Shown here: one piece after another, positions 7,298 through 64,000 of the stretch
Layout of the letters: each line of letters begins with the position of its first letter
Position numbering within the stretch: the first letter of the stretch is position 1
From: Psammoneis japonica
Lineage: Eukaryota
DNA length: 64,000 nucleotides
Direction: 5' to 3'
NCBI GenBank assembly: GCA_008632985.1
Contig: QPGO01000004.1
Span: 186,001 to 250,000, forward strand
Translations under genes and position numbers: made by a program
The notes under the pieces: generated by a model
The model's database searches: none
What the model was told of the DNA's origin: nothing
Seen by the model: only the letters and a program-made list of their open reading frames with translations

Positions 7298-7359
7298 TGA
7301 GCCAGCCAGCAAGTGTGGTGGTGACTTTTGAGCTAGCCAGCAAGTGTGGTGGTGACTTG
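7298..7359. repeat. 31-bp direct tandem repeat x2
   Basis: tgagccagccagcaagtgtggtggtgacttt vs tgagctagccagcaagtgtggtggtgacttg. The internal difference is CA vs TA. Confidence 0.85.
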
Positions 7360-29071: not shown

Positions 29072-29272
29072 ATTGGCAGTAGCAGTCGACAGGCTGGTTT
29101 CCATTTCAAAGGAACACGTAGCATAGTGCTTTAGAAGCATTCCTAATCATCGTAGCAATGATTTTGAGAGACTTCCCTTCGATCATGCGTCGATAAAAAA
29201 TGGTATCCATGTAACCTCCAATAAGAACAATATCGTAGAAACGTGGAGGGCAGATGCGTAACTCGCTCTAGG

Positions 29273-31457: not shown

Positions 31458-31644
31458 GATAAGGCTACTCTCTCCAATAGGCTTGCTTCTGTGGAGAACG
31501 GTGCAACAAATATAAAGAATATAAAATATGCAGTGTTGAGTGTTGCCGAAAGAAGAATGGCGGGAAAGGTGTGTGCGTCAGTTCAAAATGCAAGGCGCGC
31601 GTCGAACAAGACCCGCATCGCGCGACCCGCTCGCAACACTGCTG

Positions 31645-31892
31645 CACGACTACGGTATGGCACCCTCTACTCCTAGAGTAGAGAGTAGCTAGCTACTCTA
31701 GCTAGAGGGCCTACCCTCTCTCTACTCTAGCTAGTGTAGAGTACTGTAGCTAGTAGCCAGGTTCCTACCATACCGGTAACCCTTCTATTAATGTTACCCT
31801 CTCTCTACTCTACCGGTAGCTAGAGTAGCTCTAGTAGCCAGGTTTCTACCGTACGGTACCGGTAACCCTTCTATTAATGTCTCTTTCTACAG
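31645..31892. repeat. TpA-rich low-complexity tract (CTAG/TAG/CTAC/TACCGGTA words) with an internal ~55-bp direct repeat
   Basis: 10 TA in 31681-31740. The unit tagtagccaggtt..taccggtaacccttctattaatgt occurs twice. Confidence 0.85.
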
Positions 31893-31934
31893 GTAGTCGC
31901 AGTTTTAATTTTTCTACTTGAGCAATCCTCTTGC

Positions 31935-33348: not shown

Positions 33349-36157
33349 TTATCGAGGCCGTGTTCTCCTGTGGCGCACGAGCACCGACAAGACTACAGTT
33401 AAGATGACAATCAAGACAGACTCCCAACTGACAATGTGCGACAACACGACATCCCATGCCTTTCGTCTTTTTCCTGGCCTCTTTGAGTTCTGCGTCTCGG
33501 CCGGACCCGAAGATTCTCGTGCTCTTTCTGTTTCGTCTTTGTTTCTGTTGTGCCACTCGTCCCACGCGTTCAATAACCTCACAACTTTTTCGTGCAAGCT
33601 CAGGAACACCAACGCAATCTGAACAGGCGTTTCACCTTCTCGGATTTGAGAATGGGGAGGCGCTGCCAAATCGTAGTGTCGTTTTGCAAGCGGGAAGTCT
33701 TGAGACAAGCCCAATCCCCATTCATGCATAAATCCTAAATTGAAGTTGGCTCGTTGGCTCTTGTGCTCTTCGGCTGCCATGCGATAGTAATGCGCCGCAT
33801 TCGCCAAGTCACTTGCAACGCGGCTTTTCCTCTTGTCCGGGTTCGCGTCATCGTCAACGGCACAAGTTCCGTCTTCATCGCGAGCTTCGCATTGCTTGGC
33901 TGGAGGGTCTTTTATGGATGGCGTTGATTGTTTCTTGAGTACCATGGATTGGAAGAGCTGGACGGCATCATTGACGGATTTACTGACAGACTTTTCAATG
34001 TGTGGAAGCAATCTCTCAGGATATACAAGGTAGTGAATCCAGGGAAATGGTCCCATCACGGGAGTCAAGCCCGGTGATCTAAAGATGGAGAGTTCGGCCG
34101 CATCATTGTCTTGTGCTTCTTCTTGACGCAATCGCCCGTAATAGTAAAAGTCTCCGACACGTAGGCAAGCTTCGGCGTTACCCTGATGCGCGGCGGCCTT
34201 CCAATATCGTACCGACGCTCTTGCACAATCCAAAGGCGACAGGTTCAGACAAACACCACGTTCCAACAAGAAGGCTGCATTGACTTGAGCTACTTCACTG
34301 CCAGTTTCGGCTGCAGCCATGTAGTTGCGTAAGCTCTCCTCATAGTTTCCCGCCATGTATTGCTTGTACGCGTGTCGAGTGCGTCGAGAGAGGGAGAGAG
34401 AGGCGTTGTCGACGACATACTTGAATTGATTTAGGGCCCGTGTACAATCCTTGTTCACAACCTTCAAATCCTTATTGTTTCCTTCAACGTTCTTCATCAC
34501 CACACCGTGGGAGTACATCATTCCTAATCGATGACGAGCTTGAATGTGACCCATGTTGGCTGCCGCGATCAAATCACTTGCAGCGTGTTGATAGTTCACT
34601 TTCGATGGACCGTTGTAGGGCTTTTTATACCCGCCTGCCTTGAGGGGATCTATCATTGTCATTGGGCTGCCGGCCCGCCACTGATAGAATCATGAGGTTC
34701 CTCATCCTCGTCTAGCTCTATGAATTTCTCTTTGAGTCCCAAATTCATCATGGCCAGATTGTAGCTAGCATCCATGTTTCCCATTTGCTTGGATAGTTTG
34801 AAGAAGTTTCGGGCCAAATCATAATTCACAGGCAGCATGTGCGGGATTCCATACAAGTGAAGAAGACCCATGCCATTGAGCGACGGGTGATCACAAAGAG
34901 AATCATCTCCATCGTCATCCTCATTATTTTTCTTCTTCTTTTTTGATCGCTTCAATCGCTCGTTGCATCCTGGGTACCCCCCAGGAGTACCCACGCGAAA
35001 GAAGTTATACGCCTTGGTCAAATCACGCTGCTCATAGTCCATACCCAAGGCCCAAAAGTAGAATTTCCCAGCTTGTCCAGCCGCTTCGGCGTGATCGTGA
35101 TTGGCAGCGATTTCGTAGTACTTGAGAGCCAAGGTCATGTTTTGTGGAACACCGCGAACACCGTAGTGATACAAATGACCAAGGGTGTAGGCGGCATTCA
35201 AATCTGGATCGACCGGTTGAGTAGCACGAATGTGATAGTACTGCAACGCTTCTGGTTGCTCGTCGGGCTTGTTGTTCACTTGCAGCCGTGAACTTGTGCC
35301 GCCGTGCAAGTGAACCTGCGCTAGTACATGCTTGTCCATGGGTGGCTGGATCTTCCCTCGATGCTGAGGGGATGCCTCCAATTCATCCATGACACCATGT
35401 GCTGCGGCCTCATAAAACGGCAGGGCCATCTTACAGTTGTGATTATGATGGTGCTCCAGAGACGAAGAGGCTTCTGAATAGTGAAAATACCGATAACCCA
35501 GAGCAACACTACTATCCACGTTTCCGTCGATCGCAGCCATTCGATACAAGAGTTGGGATTCGATAATCTGGTCGTCTTCTTCTTTATGATCTTTGTGGTC
35601 ATCGCTATTTTGACTGGGCATCATGTCCTGTGTAACTCGCAAAGACCGCGTTGCTTCTGAATCATCCTCAATGGGCCAGATACCGGAAGCCAACGCATTG
35701 GCAACCTGATATTGCGCATCCGAGTTTCCCAGTTCCGCCGCCTTTTCAAGCGAAAGCAAGGCATAGGTCTTGTTGATGGGTCGGTTCAGACGAAATGACT
35801 CGTCCACGCCGTGCAGTGCAGCGTCCCATTCCTGAATTGCTGTTTGAGCCAGCCTCCAATAGGCTTTTGCAGCCGTCACTATATCATTCGAGAGGGGTGA
35901 ATATTGCCTCCACAGGCGAATGTAATCCTCGTCTAAGGGAACACTTGGGTTTTTGGTTTCAAAGGATAAAGGGGAAATATCTTCTTCTTTCGTCTTCTTA
36001 CGACTGGGACGATGTCTTCTAATTCCGCCTGCTTTTTCCAGTTGGTGTTCGTAGTGTACCACCATGAGCTGCAACGTGACAACGACTGTACCGAGAAAAC
36101 GGCAGTGGCACCCAAGAGAGCAACTAGTAGCAATTTCTTTATAGGAAAAGTCGCCAT
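33349..36157 (-). CDS. Sel1-repeat ER membrane protein (SEL1L/Hrd3 ERAD component); apparent indels ~36075 and ~34660
   Basis: Signal peptide; Sel1 repeats (AAYTLGHLYHYGVRGVPQN, GSEVAQVNAAFLL, VGDFYYYG, ANFNLGFMHEWGLGLSQDFPLAKRHYD); C-terminal TM. Confidence 0.9.
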
Positions 36158-36391
36158 TGTGATGTGTTTTGTGGGGAGGACAGTGTGAAGAGCGGTGTAT
36201 ACAACAACGCCATTGGATGTCTCGTGAGAAAAAATGCCTCTCCAGGAATCAACACGAGGAACGAAGCACGAAGGATTTGTACGTTAGCGTCTATACGTGA
36301 TCTACGTACGTAAGGTTTTAGTATCAGCCTACGTACCAATTGCGAGCTCTTTTTTATGTCTTATTTTCGCTTTGGCACGGTGGTCTTCCAG

Positions 36392-36732
36392 AGCTACTCT
36401 CTAGGGCCCTACTCTCTACTCTAGAGTAGAGAGAGTAGCTAGTCTCTACATAGAAGTAGCTAGCTAGAGACGGTAGTACGGTAGCTACTTTCTAGAGAGT
36501 AGCCCTACCTCTAGAGCTAGCTAGAGTAGAGTAGGACCCTACTCTAGGCCTAGTAGAGAGTAGGAGTAGTGCCGGTACAGCTCTACCGGTAGTAGAAGCA
36601 CCTCTCTACCTATAGCTAGTAGAGCCTACTCCAAGGATCTATAAGTCTGTCAGGCTAGCTACCGGTACAAGAGAGGAGAATATCGTGCCGGTAGGTAGGG
36701 CCCTAGTTCACTAGAAAGAGACAAGTACTGTC
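36392..36732. repeat. TpA-rich low-complexity tract
   Basis: 11 TA, 1 CA and 0 TG in 36421-36480. Same vocabulary as the 31645 tract. Confidence 0.85.
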
Positions 36733-36733
36733 T

Positions 36734-38097
36734 CTATTTTGAATTTTGATCCATGTCTCGAAAGAATCGTTTCCATCGTTTCTCTTTTCTCGCCAGTGCA
36801 TCATCGACATCAATGGAGCAAAATTTGTATTCGTCGATAGCTTCTTGAAATTGTTGTCTCAATTGAACTTCTCCCATGGGCGACGCGAAGAAGTCTGGTA
36901 CCAATTGTTCCTCGAGTTGCAAGGACAAATCCAACAGTTGCTGCGTTTGCTCTTTTGAAGGACACTTCATTTTGCCAAAGTCGGTTGGTTTTGTAAGATT
37001 TAGCTCTTGGTGGGCGTATTGAAGAATAGCATGCTGTGCTGATGGCCTTGTGATGTCTTTCGTTTTCAACCATCCTCGTTTGTAGCCCTCCAGCAGCAAC
37101 ATGTCTAAATGCAACGCCTTTGAGGAAGATTTGTTCTTTGTCGTGGTTTCGTTAACGTTTTCATTCTTGACGAAATTACAAAAGGAGGGAGCTTCCGGTA
37201 TCATGCTGCAAAAGAAGGTGACTTGAACCAGTACATCCTTGGGATCCACCTGGTTTTCTTTTTGCTGGTGGTGCATGTTGAATATCCAGACGGTGCTGTT
37301 TGGAAAGTGGTTTGACCATTTGCGTTTCGAACTTGAAAGCTGATTGAACGAGATAGTTGCAATATCACTGCTTTCCATGTACTCTGTAAAAGTGGGAAGG
37401 TACCGTCCACCCTCGTGTGGCCAAACCTTGAGACTATTGATTTTGTTTGGCTGATTCATCTGAGCATACCAAGATGGTGCCCATTCGAAATAGCGACGAT
37501 AGCCAACAATGATGCGTACATTCCACTTTTCTAACATTGGACCAAATAGCGGAATAGATACTGTTTCTCATGTCTTTCACTGTTGTAATTTGAAAAGATC
37601 TCTTCGGACATGAACACATTGTGGCCCTTGTCATAATGCTCCTGTACTGACCGACCGAGGTCTTTCCACGCTCGTCGGCACTCTCGCTTCTTTTTCTGCT
37701 TGCATGCATAAGACAAAGGATGCAGTTTCTGGTGGGCATGCTTGCCATAATGGCCTAAATAGTATATGTTGTGCTTGTTGAGCTGCTTTTCATGATTGGC
37801 TGCATACCATTGAATCGTTGTAGTTCCGGTCTTTGGCGGGCCCACGTGCAAGATGAACAGTGGCGCAGCGTCGGCTTTCTTAGTGTCTTGTATTTTGTCA
37901 GGTTCACGAATCGATAAATTTGTCTGGGTATGCTGGAGAGCTGTATCAGCGACGCTTCCTGTGTCCAATGTGTTTATCAAAGAAAGCGTGGTTGATGTTG
38001 CTTGTTTCAAAACTCCGTCATCTATCCAAAGAGCTATTGACAAGAGAAAAACCAGAATCCAAGTGCAATTCTTGGTCTGTAAGCATCGGCATTTCAT
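36734..38097 (-). CDS. Diatom-type P-loop/sulfotransferase-like type II membrane protein; indel ~37535
   Basis: N-terminal TM, then ILHVGPPKTGTTTIQ, SEEIF and YRRYFEWAPSWY. Paralog of 40889-42409. Confidence 0.75.
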
Positions 38098-47951: not shown

Positions 47952-48908
47952 TTAAACTCCAGAGAGATCTACGTGATCATGGTAGTCCTCGTCGGCTGAA
48001 ACGTCATCAGACAGAGCGTCTAGCTCCCTCTTGTGGACCTTGGCATGAAACGACTCGTAAAGATTTTCTTGAAAGTACGGCGATTCTTGGGGCAACTCTG
48101 CTTCAAAAGAAGCGTCTTCATGCTCGTGTTCGAAAAGGTAAGGTCCCGCCATTCGCTGCGGTGGTCCTCGTTTGCCATGGCTTTGGTGGTGGTGACTCCG
48201 ACTGCTTGTGTGGCTTCTACGTGTTCGAATAAAAGGGATTGTGACGGGCGAGTTACTGTCGCAGAAAAGTCTCATTTCTTCTTCGTAGAGGCTCAAAATT
48301 GCGTGATGATCCCGTAAGAAGTCCAACCCCAGCAACAAATCCACTCCTTCAGTGCCTGTAGACTCTAACACAGTAATAGCAGGCCCCTCAACCAAAGCAT
48401 CTCCCATGTGGATCAAAAGTGTCTTGGCCGGAATACGCCCCAAAACGCGACATTGCCCGACACCTGTGGCATGCCCAGCGTACCGCCGGTCCAACAAGTG
48501 GAGCAGCCCGGCTCTTGCGGCAGCTCCCTTCGAAAGAACTGTGACTTGAGCGCCTGTATCAACAAAGGCTGACACTGTAGATATCTTGGTGTCAAAATCT
48601 TCTTCGTGTTGTTGTTGTAGAGCGCACGGGACTTGAAGTAGACTGGTTTGAGATGCCGAAGCGGTACACTGAGGTTCTTGTAGACCATCCCATGTGCCAC
48701 TGCTTTCCAGATTTTCCCAATCATTTTGAGCGTCGTAATCGAGTACTTCAGAAAAAGGATCTTCATTGGGATGAAGTTCTTCTGATGGCCCGTCATGACG
48801 TGGAGGTTTCAAGCCGAAGCCATTTTTTGATGGATTTCGAGGCACCGCAAGGACTACGCACAACGTCAACAAGACAGCGATGAACCATTTTGGTACAGCA
48901 AAAGCCAT
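47952..48908 (-). CDS. Signal-peptide-bearing Ddi1-like retropepsin aspartyl protease domain protein
   Basis: AFVDTGAQVT, LLDRRYAGHATGVG..LGRI and DLLLGLDFL. No UBL or UBA domain seen. Confidence 0.8.
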   Translation of the reverse strand: MAFAVPKWFIAVLLTLCVVLAVPRNPSKNGFGLKPPRHDGPSEELHPNEDPFSEVLDYDAQNDWENLESSGTWDGLQEPQCTASASQTSLLQVPCALQQQHEEDFDTKISTVSAFVDTGAQVTVLSKGAAARAGLLHLLDRRYAGHATGVGQCRVLGRIPAKTLLIHMGDALVEGPAITVLESTGTEGVDLLLGLDFLRDHHAILSLYEEEMRLFCDSNSPVTIPFIRTRRSHTSSRSHHHQSHGKRGPPQRMAGPYLFEHEHEDASFEAELPQESPYFQENLYESFHAKVHKRELDALSDDVSADEDYHDHVDLSGV

Positions 48909-49320
48909 TGTCTTACTAGGCACCGTCGAGGCCTTTGATATTGATAGCTTAAAGTCAATAGCAACAGCCAAGGCCAAGACAAAGATGAATACCCACTATC
49001 TAAAAGAACAGCAAAACACTCAACAAAAGCGACGACTTCGAGTGATGGGTGATGGCTCGGGCTCGGCGCTTTTGATCTTCTCACGCGGAAATCCCTACAG
49101 CGCTTCCAGTATTTGCTGTACATACGTGAATTCTTCGTGGTGGAATAGTACTTCACTGACGTTTATGCAGATAGATCGACGTCACTAAAAAGGAATCATA
49201 AATAATGATGCGAACTCCGAACCATTTCACTTAGTAATGTTCCACATATCCGTTGCAGTTTCCTTAAGATATTTAAGGACCAACGGTTTCCGTTTTCGTT
49301 CAAAATACATTCTAAGAATT

Positions 49321-49506
49321 CTTAAAAGCGGAGCTCGTTCAAGCCGACGTCATCCAACGGTCGGCACGGAAAACCGTTAGCCGTTAGCACATGAATCGCC
49401 AATCGCTAACGGTTTCCCTGTCTCTCGCCACATTTTTCCTTCCACCACGAGAGAACAGCTCATAATCTAGACGATCACTCGCTTTTCACGCCGCTCCACT
49501 TTTGAG
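49321..49506 (+). repeat. 5' LTR
   Basis: 176/186 identical to 57957-58142 by manual alignment, no indels. Confidence 0.95.
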
Positions 49507-49533
49507 TGGTGCTTCGACACGTTATTCGAACAC
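49507..49533 (+). other. tRNA primer-binding site
   Basis: TGGTGCTTCGACACGTTATTCGAACAC lies directly after the LTR. Its reverse complement ends in ACCA and contains GTTCGAAT (T-loop-like). Confidence 0.8.
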
Positions 49534-49555
49534 ATCATCTTCCGTCAACATAACC

Positions 49556-52500
49556 ATGGCCGATCAACCGCCGGCCAAACGCGCCAAAACGCAATCCACC
49601 GACGAACACCTCGCCAATCCCCTGTCCAAAACTTTCATCCCGAAACAGCGCATGTCCTGCACGCATGGACGAATCACCTTCTCTTCTTGTCCCCCCATCA
49701 CCGCCGAAATGGGCGATGCCGAACGATGCTCAGCATTCAACATCAATGAAAATGCCGTCAATGGCACGTCCGGACTCACTCATGCCAACCGTCTCACAAT
49801 CATGGGCAATCTAACGAACACCATCAGCCTCGTCGAAGTTAAAACCAACGAATTCAAGACAACGGGCAAATCCTGCCTCAAGCAACCGGCCAACCTGACA
49901 GTGCTGTCCCACCACAACGCAGCAGGCAACCTCATCCAAAATTGCCTTGACGACGAAGGGCAACTCAAGCCGATCCAAGACGGACCCGTGGCAAATTGCC
50001 GCCCCGACGGAATCATGTGCGCCAAAATCAGAGGCATCATCAACCTTACGTCCCTCAGCGAATCAGTCAGGAATCCCACAATCACATTCTTTATTCGTTT
50101 GCCTGTGGAGAACGCAAACGCAACCAACGCCGCCGGAAACCAAGTGAATCTGTTCACCTTTGGTGGCCCAAGCAACTGCATCACATTGGACAATCAAGCT
50201 CATCAGGATGTCATCCACAACAATGACGATGACGCCATCCAAGAGCCATTCGATCTCCAAGCACCTGATTTCACTGACCCCGACGAAGCAACTGTCTCCA
50301 CCGAAGCAAAAGGCATGAGGATTGACGCTCTCATCACCCAAGCAGGGTGCGAGACCATCCCAAATGACGTTTTTACGTCCATCGCGCCCACATTCGTGGA
50401 CGACCCATTCAAAATGCTCAGCCGAGTCCATCAAACCACTGCCCAGTCAGACGGGACAACCATCTCATCGACAGCACAAGAATGTCGCGACAATTGCAAT
50501 GTCGCACTCAGTGCCCTCCCCAATCACCCAGACTCCGAATGGCAGTCCAATCCTCTTCGCACATTCGTGGACAATCTCGATCCCCAGATTCGTCAAAAGA
50601 TGGAGTCGGACGGATTCCGACGTCATGTGGAAACGGTGTCACTCCGTTGTTCCAACCAAACGAACCTCATCCAGGAGGCGTTCTCAGCCGCCAAGAAAGC
50701 AGAATCAGCTCTTGCGGCGAATCGTCTCTTCATTCAAGGCGAACTCCATAAGACTCACGGCTTCGCTGCCGTTGTTCAGCAATCCCCGGCGTCCTCATCC
50801 CTTACATCCATGAATGCTCCCACTCAACAGCAAGCCACAGTCAATCACAGCGCAGCCGAAACTGCTCTCAATCGCTGCAAGACCGCAGGCAAAGGCTGTT
50901 GGGGCTGCGGATCAACCGATCATCTGCATTGTGAAGCCAAAACCAAAACCATCACTTGTCCCAGGGGTGCAGAACCAGAAATCCAGAAGAACGCAGAAAT
51001 CGTCCACAAGGACTTTGTTGAACGCATGAAAAAGCGCCGAAACGGAAACCGTCGCCGTGCCCAAGGACAATCCAACGCAGGCAATCTTCTACTGTCAGCC
51101 TTGCTTTCCCCTCAATCTCGGACCGGAGGGAACGATGAAATCACGAAGCTCATGCTCAGCTCCATCAAACAGTTGCCACTTGGAAAGGACAACGGTGAGG
51201 AGGAGAAGGAAAAAGAAGTGTTCACGTTCCACTCCTGCGTCCTCCAATCATCCACTCCGAGCAATCTACCGCAGCTGCCGATCCCGGTCAACAATGCGCT
51301 TCCCCACATCGTCCTCCAGCTGGGATCACCCGACGCTACATTCAACCCCGGCGTTCATGCCATCGTGGACAGCGCCGCTGCCCTAGTCTGTGGGAACAGC
51401 GACTGCTGGATGCCTGTCGCCAAGGCTTGTCCCGAGCTCGTCAAGAGCACCTGTCACGCGAAGGATCATCATTCGCCCATTGTCCTCTCCGGCGTCGTTC
51501 AGAAGGATGACAAAACGAAAGTTGACGCATCTACCAACCTTCCCGCAGTTCTAGAATTTTTCATGCCATGCATGACGAAGAACGGTCAGCCTACGTCACT
51601 GAAGATCGCAGTCGGGAAGAGCGTCTCAGTAAACTGCATCATCGGAATGAGCTTCATCTCGACAGCTCAACTCGTCATGGATTTCTCCAACAATGTCATC
51701 GAGTCCAAACTTCTGGAATGCGAACCATTTCCAGTCGAATGTCGCACCCCATCATGCTCGACACCGAAGATCATCCCTCGCACGGAACCGGTGTCCACAC
51801 CGAGCTTGATTTCGATCAAGCAACAACTTTCCGATGTTGACAGGTTCATCACGAACTGCTCATACGATGACAAACCTCGTGCAGAAATCCTCACCAACTC
51901 GACTTCATCACGAGTCAAGTTCAACCTCGGTCCATCAACGGCCACACTTTCTGGTCAGTGCTGTCCTGTGCCCAAACCTCTGTCGCATTCCATGATGTCG
52001 AATCAACACATCAAGCCAATCAGTTGCATCATGCAAATCACTAAAATTGCTTGCTCACTGTTGACGTTTCAAACACCATCTGCAGGTCATCAAGCACCTA
52101 CATCCCGCAAACGTCATCAAATCATCATCCCCAAACCTCCCCATCGAGCCAAGAAGCCAAATCTCTTCGAAGGACAGAACCCACCTGACGTCCAGAGTAA
52201 CTTCCAATTCCTTCATGAATCAAGAGTCGGAAAAGTCATCAGGAAGAATGCACGGCCGGCTAGGACCGACGACGACATCGATCAGAAATTTACATCTCGC
52301 GTTTACGAACACGACAGAGACTGTCAAGAGCTCCAGAAACTAAAATTCGATGACAACACACCAGAGCGAATCAAAACACGAGTCATCGAACTAGTCAAGG
52401 AATGCTGGTGCTGTTTCTGCCAAGAAAACGTCAAGATTCCAATCCAAGATTATGAGTGCGTTGTCGACACAGGGGATTCAAAACCAACCGTGGCCAAGAA

Positions 52501-55500
52501 CATCCGATGCGGTCTCCACGAAACCCCGATTGTGAACAAAGCCATCGACGCGCTCCTTGAAAACGGACAGATCGTCCCAGACACAAGCAGCGAATGGCTC
52601 TCTCGCATCGTTCTCGCTCCCAAACCTCATCAAGAAGACGTTACGGACATCAACGAGTTCGCACGGCGATTTTGCATCAGCTGCATCAACTTGAATCAAG
52701 TCACCAAAGTCGTCTCATGCTACATTCCACGCTGCAACGATGCCGTCGAGCATGGTTTTGGATCACCCAAATGCTTTTTCCTTTTGGACGCATGCAGTGG
52801 CTACCATCAGATCAAAATGGAAGAACTGTCCGCCGCTAAGACAGCCTTCGCCGCCCCTCAAGGCAGAAAATGTCGACACACAGTCATGCCCTTTGGAGCA
52901 GTCAACGGACCCACCACATGCGTCATCATGGCCTACGACCTCAAGGACAACTGGGACCATGAAGCAAAACAGATGGGCATCAAACTAGACGACAGCAACG
53001 GGTCAACCATCATCATAGATGACAACTTCGGATTCACAGAGAGCTGCGAAATCGGCCTCAAATGTGTCGAGGCAATTCTTCGCGTCGCTCGTCGTTGCAA
53101 CCTCTCATGGAAGCTATCCAAATGCTTGTTCTTCCCGGACTCAGTGGAATTCGTAGGGCATGACTTAACGCGCCAAGGTAATCTGCCAGCAGACTCGAAA
53201 AGCGGACTCCTAAAACGATGGAAACGACCAACGACTGTCCGCGACGCATCCAGTTTTGTCGGTTTTGGGAACTTCTGTCAAAGATGTGTTCCCTGCTTTT
53301 CGGACAGAGTCGAACACATGCGCAACCTTGTCAAAGACAACGAATTCGATCATAAGATGCTACCGTCCGAATGGACAAAAGAACTCGACGACGAATTCGA
53401 GGACATCAAATCCGCCATCCTCTCTAAACCCCCATTGCGTCGCATCGACCGCAACAAACGGCCGCACCTCCGCACCGATTTCTCAGGAAAGGGCATGGGC
53501 CATGCACTTCTCCAGCCCGGAGACGACAAAGAATCCCTCGCAGCCATGGAACGGGAAGATGCAGGAGGCAAATGCGAATTCGACATCACGTTGAGCGGTC
53601 TCCGACTACTTCCATGCACTTTCGGATCTAGATTGTGCAAAGGCATCGAACGCTGTCTTCACTCCTGCATGGGAGAGGGTGCAGCCCTTCGCTGGGCGAT
53701 CCACAAAAACTCTCACACAGTGCACGGCCGTCCATTTACGAACATCGGCGACTGCTTCGGTCTCCGATGGATCATGTTTTATGACGGATGCAACCCAGCA
53801 ATCACACGCCTCCAAATGGAGCTCGTTTCATGGTGGTTCACAATCGTCCACCGCCCCAATCGCATGGTTGTCGACGCCGACTACTTTTCCAGATGAGGAC
53901 AGGAAATTGACCTGGACCCACCACTCACAAAATGCATGACCATCGCTCAACAACAGCTCACGTCGAATCCTCCGGCAGCCACCGGAGAAGAAATGCAAGC
54001 TGAGAACATGCCAGGCTGTCGACGAAACACCAAAGCTTTGGCTAATGTTTTGACAGCCATCAAGCCCTGCACTGTCAAGAAAGGCGAAATCGAAGACTCT
54101 GTCATGCTCGAAAACATGCCAATCCTTTTCGGAGTTTCGAATGACGTGACACCAAAGTCTATGATCCAATGCAGTGGAGCAACGCATGCATCGTTTCAAT
54201 TGCTCACATGCTGCTGGGCCATGTGCGGATTCTCCTCGGGACACTTCTTCTCATCTTGTGAGGAACATCAATTTCCGCTCACAGTTGTGGTCGCCGCCGA
54301 TTGCGACATGCTAGGACGCAACCTCATGCAAGAGATCGGCAAGGTTCCAACCATCTTGTCGTCAGCGAACCATCTCTTGAACCATGTCAAGCGAAATGTT
54401 GTACAGGACCTTGAAGGGTGCTGCATCACGTCACCGCATCTGCCGGACGCATCATCACAACTGGCGTTTGCAAGAACGCAAGCTGCCATCATAGCGGAAA
54501 TGCGGAATCGATGCCAACTCAAGTGCTTTGCACTCCAAACAACGCCATTTTTTAAACGAACCATCCCATCGCAATTCAAGAAATCGTGTGCAATGGATGG
54601 GTGGCATGTCGAAGAAGACGAGATCCGATTTGCTGAAATGGGTGACGCGATCGACGACTCAGCGACATTTCTGTTCGGCTTCCACATCGGTGTCACAGGA
54701 CAGAAAGTTTCAGTTCAAATCGTCCGGCCACCCCCGACCCGTTCGTCCATCTCACAATTTATCCACAAACCCTTCAACTCCAAGAGCTGCGCGATCACCG
54801 CTCTGCCCGACACTGCAACCGATGAAGCCGAGGATGACAGATTTATGCTTGAAAAAGTGGTGCCTGCTCAACCACCAAAGCAGTCGGACGCACTCATCGT
54901 CAGTCATCTGATCGAAAGAGGACCCAGACCAGCGAATCTGTGCGGCACAGCAACACACGACGTGGATCACCCCGCTCCCCCCATCGGTCACTACAACTCC
55001 AACCCCTTCAGTCAAGTCTTTGGAATGTTTTTCCAAGATGAAGACTCTGAGACAAGAATCCGCTGCATTTCAGCGTGCGAATGCATGTCGTGTTGGGGGC
55101 TGGAAAGAAATCTCATGCACAGGATGTGCACGGACCCCCGCCAATTGAACCTGCTCACAAACGGAGTCCCAGGCAAGACAAGCCACGCTGTGCTGCAAAC
55201 CATGCACGACAAACTCACAGATGTCAGACCATCATCCACGGAACTCATTGATGCGTCACAGCAAACGGCTCCTGCAGCAACCGCTCAAGCATTTCTAAAT
55301 GGTTCCACAACGACCCGACTGCCCAATCGAGAAACCTGGATCCAAGAGCACTCACGTGACCAAGAAACAAACCTCATGATCAGAATGATCAACAACCCCG
55401 CCTTGATCAACAAAGAGCAATTGCAAAACATCCACTGCTGCTGTCGACAACTGATGCGAGCAGGCAACATCCGAATCGAGGACGAAATGCTCGTCATCCG

Positions 55501-57712
55501 TGAATCGGTCGATTCAATCGGCAATTTCGCCAAACCACGCATCGTCCCATCATCTCTTCGCAACATCATCTTCATTGCTTTTCACACGAATCCCATTGGA
55601 AGCCACTTTAGCGTGTGCTGCACCTTTCACAGGATCCGACTTCACTTTTTCTGGCCGACCATGTACAAGCACGTCGCCGACCTCATCAGCAAATGCCCGG
55701 GATGCACCCTCGCGAATGCTCGATGCAGACAAAAATCGGAACTAGTGTGCTCTTTCCCCGTCGATGAGCCATTCAAGCTGATGCACGTGGACGCATGCAT
55801 GGTCAGACGTCATCAAGGTTTCCAAGGTGAAAAATGCCACATGAACGTCGTTGACGGCATGAGCACTTTTGCAGCATCAGAGGAAATCTGCGGCGAAGTC
55901 AACGCCGAATCATTCAGCAAAGCCATCATGAAGATTCTCCTCAACCATGGACTATGTCATGCAATCGTGATCGACAAAGACTCGAAATTCCGTGGAGTGT
56001 TCATCCAAGCCATCAACCTGCTCGGACTCAACTTGCATCAAGCATCCGGAGGAAACCACGACCCTGTCCTCACAGAACGACATCACGCTTTCTTGAACAA
56101 ATCTTTGCGCATTTTTTGCAATGAACGCGACTCCGTCCGGACAGCCACAGAAGGCATTCAATTGTCGGCCCATGCATGGAACTCAGCCCCAGTCGCAGGT
56201 GCAGATGTCAGCCGATCTCTCGTCGCCATCGGCCGTGAGTGCCGATTTCCCATCGATTGCACGGACTCCAGTCATGTCAACCTGCGGCCAACAACAACAT
56301 CAGTCGAGAATTACGCCGAACATCTACGCCGTTTACTTCCCAAGTGCCAGGAAGTTTTTCGAGTGCTCATCCAAGAGCACAGAGCAATGCACCGCGAATG
56401 TGTCAACAGCAACTGACCAGAACCTTTGGTTTGCTCTGTCGGAGACTTCGTTTTCATTCGAAGAGCGGCAAAATCTGATGCTCAACGCAGCCGAGTTGAC
56501 AAGATCATGCATCGCCATGCAGGCCCATGGAAAATAACTGAGAAGCCACCAGGAGCTTCCTGCCGAATCCGTCACTGCAAGACCAACGCAGAAGACAAAA
56601 AGCATGCTTCGCACATGACCCCATGTCCCACTGAACTAATTCCATTTCCACCTCTCACAGGACCTGACAACGCACACGGACAAATCAATCGACAAATCAA
56701 GAAGCATCCATTTTCGGAGGCTGGCATTGACTCCTGCACGCCACTCCAACCCTGGAGCGTTCAACGCGACAATGAAACGCAAACATCTCAGTCACTGCTG
56801 TCAACAGCCAACATGGCATGTGTCGAATCTGCTGTGCATTTTCCCACACTCGCTGAACTCAACGATGAACTCGACGGGGTGCACACCGAAGACGGATTCT
56901 TGCCAGCGACGATGGATCATCTTAAACCCTCATCGAACGAAGTGTTCATCGAGGCACTCGAAGGCAGCATGTCGAGCACAAATGACAGTGCGGACTCGAC
57001 TGGCCCCCAGTCCAACATCGGAGCGCCCACAGCACAGCAAAACCACAAACAATCACACTCGGTGCCGAATCTCAATCAGCTCATGGCCCGCATCATCCAA
57101 AGCGACCACAAGTTGTTCTTCATGTCGTGTCGAGCACCAGGCACAACTCGCACCGAATGGAATCTTGTTCAAGTTAACCTTGAGCGAACTGTGGCGGAGA
57201 ATCCCAACGCTTTCTCCGACGGCAAAATCTGCATCGACTTCTACGCACGGCATCCGCATGATGCGCAATTCAATGCCCCAAACCAGCGACATTGGAAGGA
57301 ATGTCACGAGCTAAATGGACGACACGTTCTCCACAATGACTTTCATCTGCTCAAACCTTCCCCGAATGAAACCAGTTGTGCACGTGACAAACGATTGATC
57401 GTTTTCTCCCAATGGGTGCACATCCATCACCCAGACGTATTTCTTCATGGACCGTTCAATTTTGCAATGATCAACGGACGCCAAACACGCGATCGCATGT
57501 CAGCTCACGACTGGAAAACATTGTCATCGTCATCCGAACACTGCGACAATGAGTCACCAAGCCCCAACCTCTCCCATCCATCGCACTCATGTCACGTGAA
57601 TGCACAGTTTCATGCTGTCCATCAAGACCCTGCCATCGAAGCCCGGCTGTCTGCTCTCCTCACATGCGAGCACACGTGTGACAATTGGTCCCAACTGCTG
57701 ATCAACGTTTAA
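49556..57712 (+). pseudogene. Gag-Pol polyprotein in one continuous frame, interrupted by two TGA stops (53894-53896, 56414-56416)
   Basis: Zn knuckle CWGCGSTDH; protease IVDSAA; RT LDACSGYHQI..MPFG..NGP..IIIDD; RNase H TDFS..GE..DC..DADYFSR; integrase H..H..CPGC, HVD..IDKDSKF..TER. The three listed ORFs are all in the same frame. Confidence 0.92.
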
Positions 57713-57956
57713 CGGCAATCCCTGCCGCACTACACTCAAACCATTCCAAAATGGAATTGGCGCCAAAATCAATCTCAGGCTCAAAACGAACCACCCCCTT
57801 CTTTTTCTTTTTCTTTTTCCAATCGGGTTTTTGCATTCAAGCCTTTTTCCCGAATCATCACTCATCTCCCATCACAATCCTCGTGGTTCCACGTTCCGCT
57901 TTCATCCTCATCTTGTCAGAAGCTCAAGATTGGCCTCTGCCATCTTTTTTGGGTGG

Positions 57957-58142
57957 CTTAAAAGCGGAGCTTGTTCAAGCCGACGTCATCCAACGGTCGG
58001 CACGGAAAACCGTCAGCCGTTGGCACATGAGTCACCAATCGCTGACGGTTTCCCTGTCTCTCGCCACATTTTTCCTTCCACCACGAGAGAGCAGCTCATG
58101 ATCTAGACGATCACTCGCTTTTCACGCCGTTCCACTTTTAAG
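57957..58142 (+). repeat. 3' LTR
   Basis: Direct repeat of 49321-49506, ending CTTTTAAG and followed by AATT. Confidence 0.95.
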
Positions 58143-58977
58143 AATTGATGAAAAAGATAAAATGCCGTTGAAACAACACACAGAGAGAATTAAAGCAAAC
58201 TGCTGGGGCCCAGTGTTTTTGGATGTTTTCGATGACTTTGAAACTGTGGAACACTTGGGGGTCGCGATTTGGAGTTTTTGACCCCCAGACCTATTTTAAT
58301 GCACGCCCACATGTCTGTAGAATGCATTAAAATACCAACGGTCCAAATCAGGTCGTGTTCCACAATTTCGGTTGCTCGCCAATCAAAGAAATGAGGCACA
58401 ACATTAATTATTTTAATAATTATATATATTTCAATGATCACACCCAAAACTCATACCTCATCTTCCGAAAAAACCGCCAGAGCTTACCCCCCCATTCCCC
58501 CCCCACGGAATGAGCAGACTCTCAGCTTTCCATCGATGTATCGCATGTGGGGTAACTGTGCGTACAAAATTTCAACTCATCATAAATACTCAAGTGCACG
58601 GTATGCGTTGTGATGACAACATGGAAATACAGTGCTTGTAGGTCGTGGGTCAGCGTGGGTCAGTGACCAAGCTACGGACAGATCCCGTGAGATTATACTG
58701 CAGTATAAAAGCTACACATGTGTTATGTAGGATTCTCTAGGAACGTTCATCGCGCGACTATGAAGCCTTTTACTTCAAGGTTTGTCTTTTAAATAAAATG
58801 GAGGTAGCAGCTGGTACAATTCATTACGTACCAAGGGCTCAGGCGCCTCATTCAGCAGCAGCACCGCGAGAACAACATCAGCATTACTACTACTGATTTA
58901 CTCGTTGGGATAGGTTGTACATCGGCAAAAGAGAAGAGTAAGTAATGTGCACGATAGATTATGTATGTAAAGTATAT

Positions 58978-59015
58978 CATATTTATCACCTGTCATCATA
59001 TTTATCACCTGTCAT
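58978..59015. repeat. Perfect 19-bp tandem repeat x2
   Basis: catatttatcacctgtcat occurs twice, just past the stop codon of the recombinase gene. Confidence 0.8.
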
Positions 59016-59020
59016 ACTCA

Positions 59021-61092
59021 CTACATGTGCAGTTTCCTAATCCCCAGACGATCCGGTACAGTACAGGGTTCATTGGCTTTTCCCTTGCAAGGGAACTTGG
59101 TGTGTTGGAGTGTTGGCCACTTGCGGCAGAACCGTTCCGCGTTGGAGTTACAGTGGTTTTGGAAGCAACCAACGATTGGTGGAGCCTGCTGCTGGATGAA
59201 TTTTCGGGCTCCCTCTGTCACTGATGGCTGGCCTTGCTCATGGTACTGCTCCCAAATCTTGACAACAACACCCAGCTTTTCTGCCGTCTCCGTTTTTCTC
59301 TTCTTCAGCTTGTGACGGTCTTCAAGGTCATTCCCATCCGATCCTCTCTTTTTTTTGTTCGACGATTTTGATTTGACAAGCAAACTCTCACCCGCAGCAA
59401 CACCACCAGTGAGTACACTAGCAGCTGTAGGTGCAACAATGTACTCGCTCACACTTGCAATTTCGTTGAGTTTCATTTTCCAGGCTTGTCGTACTTGAGA
59501 GGCTTGTTCGATCGGTAGTTTCGAGAGAACATCTTCCAGCGTAGCATTGGAGTCTCCCGCCCTGCGCCACTTCATTGCTTGATCAACCAAAAAAGTAATA
59601 TCCATTGCGCCCGGATGATTTGGAGGGATCATTAACTTTCGAAAAATAAAATCATAGGTGAGTTGTCCGATCGGTTTTTGGAATGGAACTGCAGGGGCAT
59701 TTATCTGACTCAAGTTGCCTTCGCTTTCTCGTAGGACACACTTCCACTTGGAAGGGACGTACTCCATAGGATCGTCATGAATAGCACCGATATCCTTTAG
59801 CGATAACGCGTCCATACGATATTTTTCGGCGTGCTTCAGGGTCTTGTAGCCCATACGCAGAAAAGGTAAGCCGTCTTGCGAAAGCTGTGTGTTCCAAGCT
59901 TGACGTTGGGGTTGTTCAATACTGTGCGAAACATTTTCTGGAGAGTGTCCATCACTTTCCAATATTCTATCTTGGTTTTGCTCACCCCATCCTCTGGCAT
60001 GTTTGCCAGCTCTTTTTCACTTGGAAACAGGTGTCCACCCTTTATGCCGCTCACATGGAGATAAATCCACAAATGACGAAGTGGGCAAAATTCAGGAAAC
60101 TCTTCCTCCTCCCACAATGTAAGTCGAACTGGATGTGGATCAGACTTTCCTTGAATTTCAGCAACTAACCCATGCACGCCCGTTGCTGTCACGACGGTCA
60201 GGGTGGTGAGGAAATCGGATATCTCTATGTCACTGAACTCATCTTGACGGAGGAAGAGGCGGATAGCAATGAGCATTATCACGAATAACTGGAGGCCTTG
60301 TGTCGTGTTGCTTGAGAGGAGGTGGTTTCGGAGCAGGCGTGTGTCCTTAGGTAAGAATTGTTCGCAACCATGGCTCTTGTACTTCGCCCCGTCCTTCTTA
60401 TTTTGTATGCGATAATTGTTCCACACCTCAGAGAATACGGGACTTCCTTTGCGGCGGAGCTTCGGATGGCCCGAATGTGCATCGCAGCCCTTGAATCGGT
60501 CCTCTGGTGGAAGACGAATACAGTCAGCGCAATGATTCTGGAGTTTGCCGCACTGATCGTGAATCTCGTGGAGCGTATTTACTGCGGTGCGCAAGCCGGC
60601 GACACAATCTGGATCCTTCCACTCACCCGTACATTCGATGGGAGTACCGTGCACATCTTTCACAATCTCATCATTGTCTCCACGTAAAAGAACGCCTTTC
60701 TCGTTACGCTTGTACTTGCAGAAAAGCACGATACTCTTTGGGTCCATTGAAACGCAGTTTTTTGGTGCATGCTCGTGCAGCATCAACAAAGAATCGTAGT
60801 CGCCAATAAGAATAAGGAAACGGCCAAGATTGCCTAGTATTCCATTGTACTTTTGCTTGCTCTTCTTTTCGTAGCACCTGGTGCCAAGCCATTTTTCAGC
60901 CTTCTCGTTGGACATCGTCAGTCCCATCTTTTCAGCCGCCTCGACTGTCTTTTCCTTTGCCATTGCCATGGCAGTAGCACTAGGAAGCGGCATTCCATGC
61001 TTGATTTTGAAACGACTGTTGTCATTGTCAGCATAAGTGCGATCAAAGCAACGGTTGCTGTGTGAGAAGGGGACCAGAACTCGTGTTGCCAT
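59021..61092 (-). mobile_element. Crypton-like tyrosine recombinase gene, frameshifted at ~59850
   Basis: LFLRQDE (catalytic R), QGKSD (K), FCPLRHL..GGHLFP and LGTHSFRKTAY (HxxR). In the next frame, KT..AEKYRMDA (Y). C-terminal C..NHC..F..W motif. No RT associated. Confidence 0.8.
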
Positions 61093-61404
61093 GGTGATTC
61101 TGGGCTTTTGTTTCGACTCGTTGTGCTCTCGAGGAAACTTTGTTTGCTTTTTCACACATTTCAAACCTTGGTCGATGGCGCAATTCGGCTGGAGTTTACA
61201 TGAACTTGTTAAATAAAAGTTATGATTATTTTCAGTTATGCACTTAAAACATTAGTTTCCCACAAGTGGGTCAGTTTGGGGCAAGAAGGATTGCTTGACA
61301 ACGGCCATTTCAAACTCGTGGATGGGTTGGGTCAGTTGCGGGGCAGGCGCCATGTATTTGACCGGGGAGGATCCTGTGTTCCCCTTGTTGTTACGGTCTA
61401 CAGT

Positions 61405-64000
61405 ACAGCACATGCATCATGCAGCACACACCTCGCTCAGGGGATCACGCATCCCTTCGTCCCAGATCAGCTCTAGCTGGCAGCTGGACGTCCTCAATGG
61501 GCGGAGGATGGCGCTGGTCTGTCCCCATGCAAGCATTAAAAAGTGTGCCAACCCACCACTCACGGAGACCACCGACACCACGCCGAGAAGACAAAAACCT
61601 GGCAACACACTGACAACGGCACCAGAATCGACTCGGATCTCCACGCACAGCCTGCGAAAACTGCACGTGACAACTGCCCCTCACTCGTGCGACTGTGTCA
61701 ACCACATGACATCCACCTTTTCCCCTTTTTTTAAACATCATGTTTGAAGGACAGACAGGAATGGGCACAAGCACGCACTCCAGAGCAACAGATCATGAAC
61801 ACGGCGGTCGCCTTCGCGTTCGACAAAATCAGCCGAACCCTGACGTCATGAGGAAAAAGGAGGAATCTTTCGAGGTGGATTCAATGGGATTTGCATCGCG
61901 CTCGAATTTCAAGTCATTTGAGTCAGTGTGAACAGCAAAGAACCATCGCGATGGTGGCAACCAAGCTGTTTTCAATGCAGTGTTCTTCTTTCCTTGATGC
62001 TCTCATGAATTTTTCATGAGAGTGCGGCACATTGAAAAGAGTGAAATTTTGAATGTGTTCTACAGAAATTGTGGTCAGCAAAGCAGTGCAACAACACAGA
62101 ACACAGCAACACAGTTGTTGACTTCATGTGTTGGTTTTTAGGATTTGCTGAGGGCACTGAACAGCCCAAAAAGGACAAGAAGCAATGTTGAACAAAAACC
62201 GCAGCTGCGCAGTTTGTGGGTAAGAGCATCTCGTGTTGTTGCCGCTTTGGTCAACAAATGGTGTGAATGATGACATTGTTCATGATGTGTGCTCTCCTCT
62301 TGTCGAGTTGATTCCATTTGATGGAATGTTGTGGTGTGAAGACCTGTGGCACGTTGTTTGCGTGGATTTCTGCACTGCGTTCACTGAGGAAAAAGCGGAG
62401 TGAAGCCAAAACAGCACATGAATGTGGGTTCACTGCTTGTGTTCACCAACGTCATCACAGAAAGCATGCATGCCAGCATGACATGGTGAACATGAAGGCG
62501 GTTGTCTTCACTTGTGATCTGTCACTTTGCTGCAACTGCCTGCCTGCCAGCAACTGCCAACTGCAGTGCACTGAGATGAGAAACACCACCTCCATCGTCA
62601 GTGCAAAGAGAGCAGATCCCAGCCCCTGCGATTTTTGTAACTCTCTCACACCGCTCCTCTGCCCCCCAATCCCAGGCCTCTCAAATCCTCAGTCAGTCTC
62701 AAGAACTTTCTTGGCATCACCCTCTCCAACCACCACCTCTCTCTTCTTCTTCTTTTGCCAACCCTTCCCTTCCCAACTCTCTCTGCTCCCACTGCCCACC
62801 TGTCTGTGCTGTCAGCCTCCCTTTCTCCCCTCACCCCCAGCCCCCTGCCCCTGCTGCTCTCTGTGCATTGTGTTGCCTGCCACCTGCACCAGCCACCCCC
62901 ATTTCTTCCCCACCCCAGCTGCCATTGTTGTGTCTGCTTCTGAGTTTCAAAATGACTTGATTTCACACTCAATGCTTGTCAAACTTTCTTGACTCTGCTG
63001 TTTCAGTGCTGGCACACAATCAACTCAGAACTCCCCCTTGCACAGGTCAACAAAACAGCTGATCTTTGAGACAACTGATTGTGCACAAAGTGCACATGTG
63101 AAGTCAGCTGCTCCAATTTTTCTTGAAAAAAAAAGGAACTGGAGCACCCTGGTTTTTCTCTTTAAAAAAGGAGTTGGAGCACCCTGTTTTTTTGTGGCAG
63201 TGTGAACTCATCACGACAGTGTGAAGGACATGCGCAATTGTTGAAAACAGCCAAACAACTTGATGAAAGAAACAAAAAAAGCAGCTCAAAGGTGCATCTG
63301 AAAGGCTGTGTGCAGGTTTCCATTGTTTTCTCATTAAAAATAAGTGCTCCCCAAAATGTTTTGTGTTTGTTGGTTGCTTGTGCCACCCTCCAAGCAACAT
63401 GGAGACAACAGCCGGCACTGCAAAACAACCAGATCTGAGAAAAAATGCAACAGAAATTGGGGGGAAGTCCACAAAGATTCACTTGCACAAAACACACAGT
63501 GAGACAGAAGAAGAGCAGGCTCAGTGCAGTGCCCCAGCACCTCAGCAGCACACGTGTGTCTCAATGTTAGAAAGTTGGGGTTTGACACCGTTTTTGGAGC
63601 ACAGACAGACAATGTTCAAGTGAAAGCAACAACACTGACAATTGTTGGCAACATGGTGAGTTCAGACAACTCAAAATGAAGTTGGGTCTCTTGCTTGCTT
63701 TTTTAGCTTCTGCACTTGGGCAACACAGCAATCAGCACAGAGTGGTGTTTGCAATCCACAGGGTGAGTTTAGGGATCAGCAAAACCAGCACAGATTGGTT
63801 GGCAGTGAGCCATGAAATTCCAACACTCACCTTGGATGAAAACACATGCCCAGGACAACATCAGCAACAGCGCCTTCTCTTCTCATTCTGTGCTCACCCC
63901 CCCACCCCCCACCCCCTCTCCCAGCTGCACAGCCAAAGTTCCAGAAGCAAGCCTCTTGTTCTCAATGGGGATGAGGAGTGCTTTCAAAAAAAAAACACAA
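61405..64000. repeat. TpA-depleted repeat-like block; CpG retained to ~61950, then also depleted
   Basis: TA is lost abruptly after ttacggtctacagtacag (~61390-61407). CA/TG-rich, with no recognisable coding motif. Confidence 0.8.

Follow-up and report, generated by a model that had tools for sequence, protein, structure and literature searches.

TpA loss by transition mutation in retrotransposon-derived DNA of the diatom Psammoneis japonica

What removes a single dinucleotide, TpA, from transposon-derived DNA and leaves the neighbouring genes with their ordinary share of it? The question is raised by a 64,000-nucleotide stretch of DNA from Psammoneis japonica (GenBank assembly GCA_008632985.1, contig QPGO01000004.1, positions 186,001–250,000 of the forward strand), hereafter the window, and in particular by a Ty3/Gypsy long terminal repeat (LTR) retrotransposon at 49321–58142 within it. 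A preliminary description had proposed that TpA is converted to TpG and CpA in this element, and in the DNA at either end of the window, by a process of which it knew no description. The TpA depletion as first described is confirmed as real. The underlying mutations followed integration, affected both strands, are restricted within the window to transposon-derived DNA and show a context preference wider than the dinucleotide itself. They are probably the work of a host process resembling genome defence—TpA hypermutation of the type measured in the alga Bigelowiella natans—operating in diatoms on transposon DNA.

TpA depletion across the window

The depleted DNA lies in three domains:

1–9139, no strand: TpA- and CpG-depleted domain of composite, degenerate retroelement DNA, cut by the left end of the window; right border at 9139–9167.
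49504–58099, no strand: TpA-hypermutated interval of the Gypsy element, delimited by TA positions, the LTR alignment and a TpA ratio of 0.15; left edge at 49464–49504, right edge at 58099–58138.
61405–64000, no strand: third TpA-depleted domain, without family assignment, with a TpA ratio of 0.08; cut by the right end of the window.

Dinucleotide frequencies are given as observed/expected ratios (O/E), from sliding-window, pooled and 200-base-bin counts, and the profile covers this one 64-kb window. In 1-kb windows the O/E of TpA is 0.02–0.14 in 1–9000, 0.08–0.25 in 50001–58000 and 0.06–0.08 in 62001–64000, against 0.38–1.09 in host DNA (10001–49000 and 58001–61000); the windows straddling a border, which begin at 9001, 49001 and 61001, give 0.30, 0.47 and 0.25. 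Pooled values are 0.07 for 1–9150 (44 TA), 0.15 for the Gypsy interior (74 TA) and 0.08 for 61405–64000 (13 TA), compared with 0.58 for the 43.4 kb outside the three domains (1748 TA). Applied to the three domains, the host ratio predicts 342, 284 and 99 TA, and the counts are 44, 72 and 13 (Poisson P = 2.5e-92, 3e-51 and 2e-27). The change of composition is confined to 9139–9167, 49464–49504, 58099–58139 and about 61405, so the borders are sharp to tens of bases. The near-absence of TpA first noticed in these three stretches, with its sharp borders, is therefore upheld (0.07–0.15 against 0.58), as is, for this window, the limitation of the process to transposon-derived DNA, host genes and spacers (43 kb) standing at 0.58. 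Two host windows, 31001–32000 and 36001–37000, lie far above that value at 1.01 and 1.09, with CA and TG below 1.

TpG and CpA are raised in step with the loss, to 1.33 each in the Gypsy element and to 1.84 and 1.78 in 1–9150, and the GC content of the Gypsy element is 0.516 compared with 0.45–0.48 in its closest relatives. The O/E of CpG is normal in the Gypsy element (1.03) as against 0.14 in 1–9150; in the third domain it is normal to about 62000 and depleted further on, at 0.0–0.26 in most 200-base bins. It had been argued from the CpG still common inside the element that ordinary decay of 5-methylcytosine (5mC) does not explain the missing TA, and the value of 1.03 bears out both the observation and the argument.

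Loss of TA deletes the stop codons TAA and TAG, and long spurious open reading frames (ORFs) result: overlapping ORFs of 100–275 aa occupy several frames on both strands in all three domains, and the Gypsy element holds 35 TAA and TAG triplets together against 103 TGA. Gene predictors will over-call such regions, and gene predictions will be inflated by false long ORFs. The use of open ORFs as a sign of activity was dropped, since a TA>TG/CA change never makes a stop from a sense codon and destroys TAA and TAG.

The Gypsy element has the following parts:

49321–49506, plus strand: 5′ LTR, Ty3/Gypsy, a 186-base direct repeat 95% identical to the 3′ LTR.
57957–58142, plus strand: 3′ LTR, Ty3/Gypsy, the other 186-base direct repeat.
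49466–57712, plus strand: Gypsy polyprotein frame with zinc knuckle, reverse transcriptase, RNase H, integrase zinc finger and a conserved C-terminal region.

The element is flanked by a target-site duplication, AATT, and its LTR termini are 8-base inverted sequences. Since a 4-bp target-site duplication marks a genuine insertion, the target is confirmed as a genuine Ty3/Gypsy LTR retrotransposon. Pfam families follow one another in the frame in the order RVT_1, RT_RNaseH_2, RT_RNaseH and Integrase_H2C2. In-frame TGA codons interrupt it at 53894 and 56414, where homologues have Leu and Arg respectively, and the Arg of the homologues fits a CGA>TGA change at the second stop. Two regions conserved in the family are without a Pfam match: some 550 residues from RNase H to the integrase zinc finger (53897–55540, polyprotein residues ~1477–2026), and a 431-aa C-terminal domain after the integrase (56417–57712). 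No contig of run X2 lies on 49438–57679, which says nothing about expression. No sibling copy of the element was found in the protein collection, where the best identity was 62% among 19 matches.

The motifs in which Cys or His had been noticed at positions usually held by Tyr, RKCRHTVMPFG, RCLHSCMGE and NQRHWKECH among them, are present (at 52865, 53264, 53651 and 57281), and Tyr is indeed scarce, with 3 in an 826-aa ORF and 1 in the 431-aa ORF. Over the 2749 codons of the frame Tyr makes up 0.47%, against a mean of 3.44% (range 1.16–4.61) in 90 homologues. Conserved positions were taken from an alignment of 37 homologues longer than 1500 aa, drawn from the first 50 of 120 listed, as columns with at least 60% Tyr. 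At these 29 columns the element has Cys 16 times, His 6, Tyr 6 and Phe once, so that 22 of the 29 read Cys or His; each of the 37 homologues has 0–1 Cys and 0–1 His at the same columns. Other conserved residues of the element are retained at 72–100%, save Thr at 54%. The earlier proposal that TA>TG and TA>CA on either strand lie behind the replacement of Tyr by Cys and His is supported by these counts.

Substitutions at conserved columns of all kinds have the same character. The element is identical at 447 of 545 and substituted at 98. Of these substitutions, 28 are transversions and 23 involve multiple changes; the remaining 47 are single transitions, made up of 36 TA>TG (26) or TA>CA (10) changes, 6 cases of CpG decay and 5 others. 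A>G is preceded by T in 26 cases and by another base in 1; T>C stands before A in 10 and elsewhere in 2. The excess of A>G on the coding strand (Cys 16 against His 6; 26 against 10) is not taken as a strand bias, because a Tyr codon is TAY on that strand by definition, the count misses synonymous changes, and TG and CA have the same O/E of 1.33.

Equal poverty in TA and Tyr among relatives, which would have told against the preliminary description, is not seen. All 67 related metagenome loci have a TpA O/E of 0.46–0.82, none below 0.46, and the mean Tyr content of homologues is the 3.44% given above. Coding strands carry a mean of 44.0 TA per kb in 33 of the 67, against 9.1 in the Gypsy element, a loss of ~79%. 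One environmental relative, P0182 (a Joint Genome Institute metagenome; 1117 aa), is 40% identical and contains 1.16% Tyr and 4.3% Cys. It covers 16 of the Tyr-consensus columns, with Cys at 3 and His at 4 of them, as against 0–1 of each in the 37 controls. P0182 may come from a copy in some other organism that has been hypermutated in part.

The left-hand domain holds a second kind of retroelement, resembling a long interspersed nuclear element (LINE), and a repeat pair:

3317–6429, plus strand: remnant of a LINE-like non-LTR retrotransposon, running from reverse transcriptase through RNase H to the C-terminus, frameshifted.
7574–9139, plus strand: tandem pair of ~775-base repeats (7574–8348 and 8370–9139), whose end is the exact end of the depleted domain.

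The frame at 4691–5413 has 247 relatives, of which the long ones carry an AP-endonuclease domain (Exo_endo_phos) together with RVT_1, a combination that identifies a non-LTR retrotransposon. By tblastn, 11 related polyproteins map to 3317–6429 on the plus strand in frames 2, 1, 3, 2, 1, and RNase H is a lead with an Atlas score of 0.94. Conserved Tyr is kept at 1 of 11 positions, with Cys at 3, His at 1, Phe at 2 and other residues at 4; conserved Arg is kept at 5 of 19, with Gln at 5, His at 3, Trp and Cys at 1 each and other residues at 4. The LINE-like remnant, which is older, thus carries the TpA signature with CpG decay added to it, replicating the result for the Gypsy element. The 775-base repeats are 77% identical over 810 columns (blastn), and their global alignment has 84 transitions, 49 transversions and 13 adjacent TG-versus-CA double differences. 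Pfam searches with 8 ORFs of 1–9150 and 3 ORFs of 61256–63999 gave nothing usable; the LINE-like identity depends on the relatives of the frame at 4691–5413.

Timing, extent and sequence context of the mutations

The LTR pair of the Gypsy element differs at 10 of 186 positions, all of them transitions (7 A/G, 3 C/T). Five of the ten are TA versus TG/CA and two are CpG versus TG/CA; two are A/G differences at ApA, so the restriction to TpA is not absolute. Since the LTRs were identical at insertion and now differ by TA loss, the mutation took place after integration. DNA-level action after integration had been suggested at the outset, and it is borne out by this divergence together with the change of Tyr to Cys or His, the TA-normal relatives and the copy-to-copy differences described below. 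One-stranded RNA editing, considered unfit from the start, remains so: the LTRs differ at five TA sites, and both TG and CA outcomes occur.

The differences are unevenly distributed. Bases 1–143 of the 5′ LTR are unmutated, with every TA kept, and base 184 is mutated from TA to TG. In the 3′ LTR, four of six TA sites (LTR positions 58, 65, 87 and 143) are now CA or TG and two CpG are mutated, while the TA at 183 is kept. All eight differences at LTR positions 16–143 are derived in the 3′ LTR, as four TA, two CpG and two ApA losses, the direction at ApA being assumed. At position 183/184 the TA is gone from the 5′ LTR and present in the 3′ LTR and in other copies seen in the sequencing run X1, where 49504, a G in the window, is A; the difference at LTR position 174 is left without a direction. 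The mutated interval, from 49464–49504 to 58099–58138, is one LTR-to-LTR unit. The span of 49321–58142 first described as TA-poor is accordingly so for most of its length, the exceptions being bases 1–143 of the 5′ LTR and the final bases of the 3′ LTR. The interval matches the extent expected of the element’s R-to-R transcript, from about LTR position 150–184 to the same point in the other LTR. One and the same sequence is altered at the 3′ end of the element and left intact at the 5′ end, which makes it unlikely that homology is all that is sensed. A cis-acting domain is favoured, either linked to transcription or formed by a block of silenced chromatin that the adjacent divergent host promoter keeps off the 5′ LTR.

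Between run X1 and the window there are 9 differences in 3820 unique bases; X1 is therefore a different data set, probably from a related strain. Many diverged copies of the Gypsy family occur in it, in contigs 94–99% identical to the TA-poor sequence, and its differences from the window comprise 590 transitions and 75 transversions, the opposite directions of change being about balanced (A>G 144, T>C 174, C>T 131, G>A 141). The copy-to-copy comparison draws on the X1 tables alone, of whose ~670 difference rows 40 were examined individually. Among the 23 element rows shown there are TG-versus-CA doublets at 49658/9, 49902/3, 50151/2 and 49607/8, TA-versus-TG/CA states at 49504, 49523 and 49585, and CpG-versus-TG/CA states too. 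The preliminary description had envisaged that independent reads might restore TA; X1 matches the TA-poor sequence instead, and its copies vary between TA, TG and CA. On this point and on the composition of relatives, the outcome favours the preliminary description.

Loss of TA depends on the flanking bases. Relative to the coding strands of relatives, TA survival is 0.21x in RTAY (R, purine; Y, pyrimidine), 0.86x in RTAR, 1.09x in YTAY and 2.34x in YTAR (chi-square P = 2.8e-5). Measured against host background, the 131 surviving TA include no ATAT and two ATAC, and TTAA is enriched 3.6-fold among them. A purine precedes the Tyr codon at 16 of the 22 mutated columns and at 1 of the 6 surviving ones. 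According to a per-strand model, roughly fitted, TA with a 3′ pyrimidine is ~4x as mutable as TA with a 3′ purine, and the 3′ bases rank in the order T, C, A, G; in the surviving-site analysis the preference for TAT is at least that for TAC, and TAG and TAA are the most resistant contexts. This TAY preference runs opposite to that of ADAR, which favours a 3′ G, and resembles the natural site of TadA, U-A-C in tRNA-Arg.

Mechanism, alternatives and host setting

The process may be pictured as follows. Three transposon-derived stretches have lost ~75–90% of their TpA by transitions to TpG and CpA, on both strands and after integration. A deaminase acting on DNA, TadA/ADAT2-like or of another kind, would convert the adenine in 5′-T-A-Y-3′ to inosine, which is read as G; an adenine deaminase is the leading guess. 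Targeting would be in cis, directed at the element’s silenced or transcribed unit and independent of sequence homology, because identical LTR sequence is mutated at the 3′ end and spared at the 5′ end. CpG decay, presumably via 5mC, would act on the same domains far more slowly. That TpA loss is much the faster is indicated by the Gypsy element, where ~79% of TA is gone and most CpG is kept. Traces of CpG decay are seen in the CpG ratio of 0.14 in 1–9150, in two of the ten LTR differences, in the Arg positions of the LINE-like remnant that now read Gln, His, Trp or Cys (10 of 19) and in the one stop attributable to CGA>TGA.

A broader version is possible but doubtful: that this is an old defence shared by distant lineages of the Stramenopila–Alveolata–Rhizaria (SAR) group, diatoms and chlorarachniophytes, in which a TAY-specific adenine deaminase acts in cis on a silenced transcription unit. 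The agreement of the mutated interval with the R-to-R transcript extent, and the CpG-decay differences lying in that same interval, point towards a transcript unit acted upon in cis. If the broader version were true, the SAR-wide system would do to transposons, by adenine chemistry, what somatic hypermutation does to antibody genes.

Several points weigh against this account as a whole or in part. Adenine deamination and thymine-directed chemistry cannot be separated by sequence alone, and ‘all repeats’ or ‘only repeats’ are claims beyond the scope of one window. The LTR asymmetry concerns one element and 10 sites, and with any boundary allowed a perfect separation has a chance of ~0.02; moreover, the 5′ LTR could be shielded by the adjacent host promoter (of the gene at 47952–48995, which points away from it), whether or not the element’s transcription plays any part. 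Three of the four TA sites mutated in the 3′ LTR have the YTAR context, which makes the preference graded, not absolute. Some of the DNA between the depleted domains (58.3–61.4 kb) may be multi-copy and yet TA-normal. The exclusion of an artefact depends on X1 being accurate-read data, its platform not being on record. The transcription-coupled part is further weakened by B. natans, whose main hypermutated region is called transcriptionally silent in the available part of the preprint (10.64898/2026.01.13.699255).

Five alternatives were weighed. Another chemistry acting on the same targets is improbable, though not negligibly so. The thymine of TpA might be modified, for instance by a TET/JBP-type dioxygenase to 5-hydroxymethyluracil or 5-formyluracil, or the adenine methylated, and mispairing or error-prone repair would then give T>C. 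An A>G change on one strand is a T>C change on the other, 5-formyluracil mispairs with G, and an enzyme that recognises a duplex site would be consistent with both the two-strand symmetry (TG and CA at 1.33) and the palindrome-like preference for RTAY. However, an additive per-strand TAY model fits the context classes (0.21, 0.86, 1.09 and 2.34) about equally, and a deaminase is proposed for B. natans, with no thymine-directed alternative in the part of that source available (10.64898/2026.01.13.699255).

It is unlikely that duplicated DNA is sensed by homology and any repeat mutated, as in fungal repeat-induced point mutation (RIP), with the chemistry alone differing. All three depleted domains are transposon-derived, many Gypsy-family copies are present in X1, and the analogy with RIP is itself drawn in the available text of 10.64898/2026.01.13.699255. 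Against this stands a duplication within the window that serves as a negative control:

25105–29539, no strand: tandem 2.2-kb gene duplicate (copies 25105–27278 and 27438–29539), not hypermutated.

The copies are 92% identical and differ by an ordinary spectrum of 91 transitions and 81 transversions, with one TG-versus-CA double in 2088 aligned columns, and their TpA O/E of 0.40–0.66 is normal. As the duplicate is untouched, duplication is an unlikely trigger. Moreover, one of two identical LTR stretches is mutated and the other is not, and the hypermutated insert of a nucleocytoplasmic large DNA virus (NCLDV) in B. natans is single-copy, with a TpA O/E of 0.45, according to the available part of the preprint (10.64898/2026.01.13.699255). 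Segments of the duplicate vary from 82 to 99% in identity, and its ORFs at 25798–26505 and 28250–29146 are without a Pfam match.

Editing before integration, whether by ADAR-like A-to-I conversion of the element’s RNA or by deamination of cDNA during reverse transcription, is very unlikely. Retroelements do pass through RNA and single-stranded cDNA, but both LTRs are made from one template and yet differ at five TA-versus-TG/CA sites, and both strands are affected (26 TA>TG and 10 TA>CA on the coding strand). TAG and TAA, the most resistant contexts here, are also the reverse of what the 3′ G preference of ADAR would lead one to expect. A 5′ U/T preference is common to ADAR, as the Discussion of 10.64898/2026.01.13.699255 states; the same source, as far as available, has the B. 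natans mutations arising in integrated DNA.

There is still less to be said for a sequencing or assembly artefact, in which a modified base at transposon TpA would be miscalled as G or C and the true DNA would be TA. Such miscalling would likewise turn Tyr into Cys and His and give sharp borders, and the sequencing platform is recorded neither for the assembly nor for X1. X1 is not, however, the window’s own data, and the G>A and C>T changes that would restore TA do not dominate its differences; an X1 contig across 62388–64000 differs at just 13 sites. Copies also vary between TG and CA at one site, and the 5′ LTR reads TA where the identical sequence of the 3′ LTR does not. Native composition—families intrinsically poor in TA because of selection (such as evasion of a nuclease that cuts at UA) or because they came from a TA-poor donor—is barely credible, and for the Gypsy element refuted, for although TpA is mildly scarce everywhere (host 0.58, relatives 0.46–0.82), all 67 related loci stand at 0.46 or above, TA loss separates the two LTRs, two in-frame stops are present and conserved Tyr is lost at 22 of 29 columns, which a functional element could not tolerate.

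The window is nuclear DNA of a diatom, and between the depleted domains it has the character of ordinary host sequence. A cytochrome b5 reductase gene at 9460–10323 has its best matches, at 59–65% identity, in diatoms (Asterionellopsis, Coscinodiscus, Cylindrotheca and Seminavis among the names), and the gene at 11592–12455 matches the diatom pyrenoid shell protein family PF25192 (E = 7e-88); the latter, 2.4 kb from a depleted domain, is of normal composition. Other genes encode a LepA-like GTPase, a choline kinase, a fasciclin protein, Sel1-repeat proteins, FAST/RAP proteins and a DDI1-like protease, and contigs of run X2, which are spliced and look RNA-derived, show short GT..AG introns in the window. 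Pfam annotation revealed no deaminase among the genes between the depleted domains, the annotated genes all having other functions, in agreement with the earlier statement that no candidate is visible in the window.

Two stretches of this host DNA deserve separate mention; for both, summed contig depth in run X1 does not equal copy number. At 58314–58947 the summed X1 depth is ~14x that of unique DNA and the TpA O/E ~0.77, and this may be a short repeat escaping hypermutation. A 471-aa minus-strand ORF at 59836–61251 resembles tyrosine recombinases of Crypton-like elements (Atlas 0.94–0.97, a lead only; no Pfam match); TpA is normal there despite a summed X1 depth ~5x the single-copy level, and an X2 spliced contig with five GT..AG introns runs across the ORF on the opposite strand (58833–60763, plus).

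The first report of targeted A:T>G:C hypermutation of DNA is very recent and concerns a single alga, and a saturated signature in a diatom, a different branch of the supergroup, suggests that the process is probably widespread in marine protists. It shapes the decay of transposons and GC content. Diatoms are a group with genetic tools for studying it, the TAY preference and the LTR asymmetry offer handles on the enzyme and the route of targeting, and a natural DNA adenine deaminase would be of interest to the base-editing field.

Comparison with known systems

The closest known system is that of Bigelowiella natans, a chlorarachniophyte (Rhizaria), in whose mutation-accumulation lines A:T>G:C hypermutation at TpA only has been measured (Mettrop et al., 2026; bioRxiv 10.64898/2026.01.13.699255; the statements here refer to the part of the preprint available). 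The supposition that such a process was undescribed therefore does not stand. Two integrated viral regions of B. natans mutate ~1000x faster than the remaining genome, and 230 of the 231 mutations in the viral inserts are A>G or T>C, all at TpA; the hypermutation arises in integrated DNA during culture and is intermittent between lines. TpA-poor coding sequences are enriched for reverse-transcriptase and DDE domains, and the authors draw the analogy with RIP and propose an ADAT2-like deaminase. As far as it is available, the main text is without the words ‘trinucleotide’, ‘flanking’, ‘retrotransposon’ and ‘diatom’. Literature searches found no report of TpA hypermutation in diatoms.

The two systems share TpA>TpG/CpA change on both strands of integrated DNA, foreign or mobile sequence as the target, long-term TpA depletion and enrichment of CpA and TpG. 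They differ in host, here a diatom (Stramenopila), and in targets, which here are an LTR retrotransposon and a LINE-like element mutated to near saturation (0.07–0.15, as against 0.45 for the NCLDV insert). In the window, unlike what is available on B. natans, CpG decay also overlies the older elements, TAY is hit in preference to TAR and the LTRs are asymmetrical.

Fungal RIP likewise acts on both strands of DNA, as a burst of transitions specific to one dinucleotide, and it too wrecks transposons and gives sharp borders in base composition. It changes C to T at CpA, however, and so creates TpA, whereas here TpA is destroyed and CA, TG and GC content are raised; and it is triggered by duplication, whereas here the tandem 2.2-kb duplicate is spared and the LTRs are treated unequally.

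Somatic hypermutation by AID and the action of APOBEC3 on retroelements are also motif-specific, deaminase-type hypermutation of defined DNA. AID acts on both strands of a transcribed unit, starting slightly downstream of the promoter, and its interval resembles that of the Gypsy element. Both enzymes, however, are cytosine deaminases (C>U), and neither gives A>G at TpA; APOBEC3 is one-stranded, acting on minus-strand cDNA before integration. Hyper-editing of repeat double-stranded RNA by ADAR, a metazoan enzyme, shares with the present case the A>G change, the 5′ U/T preference and repeats as the target, but it takes place in RNA, on one strand, and would leave the LTRs identical.

TadA, ADAT2 and the base editors derived from TadA deaminate adenine after U or T, as the agent proposed here would do, and to our knowledge no natural ADAT hypermutates chromosomal transposons. 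One such editor, TadA-8e A48E, is described with a ‘YAC’ context preference in the part of that paper available (PMC13109818). The phenomenon itself is thus known since 2026 in one other lineage, and the extension to diatoms, the saturated retrotransposon targets, the TAY context and the transcript-length interval are additions to it.

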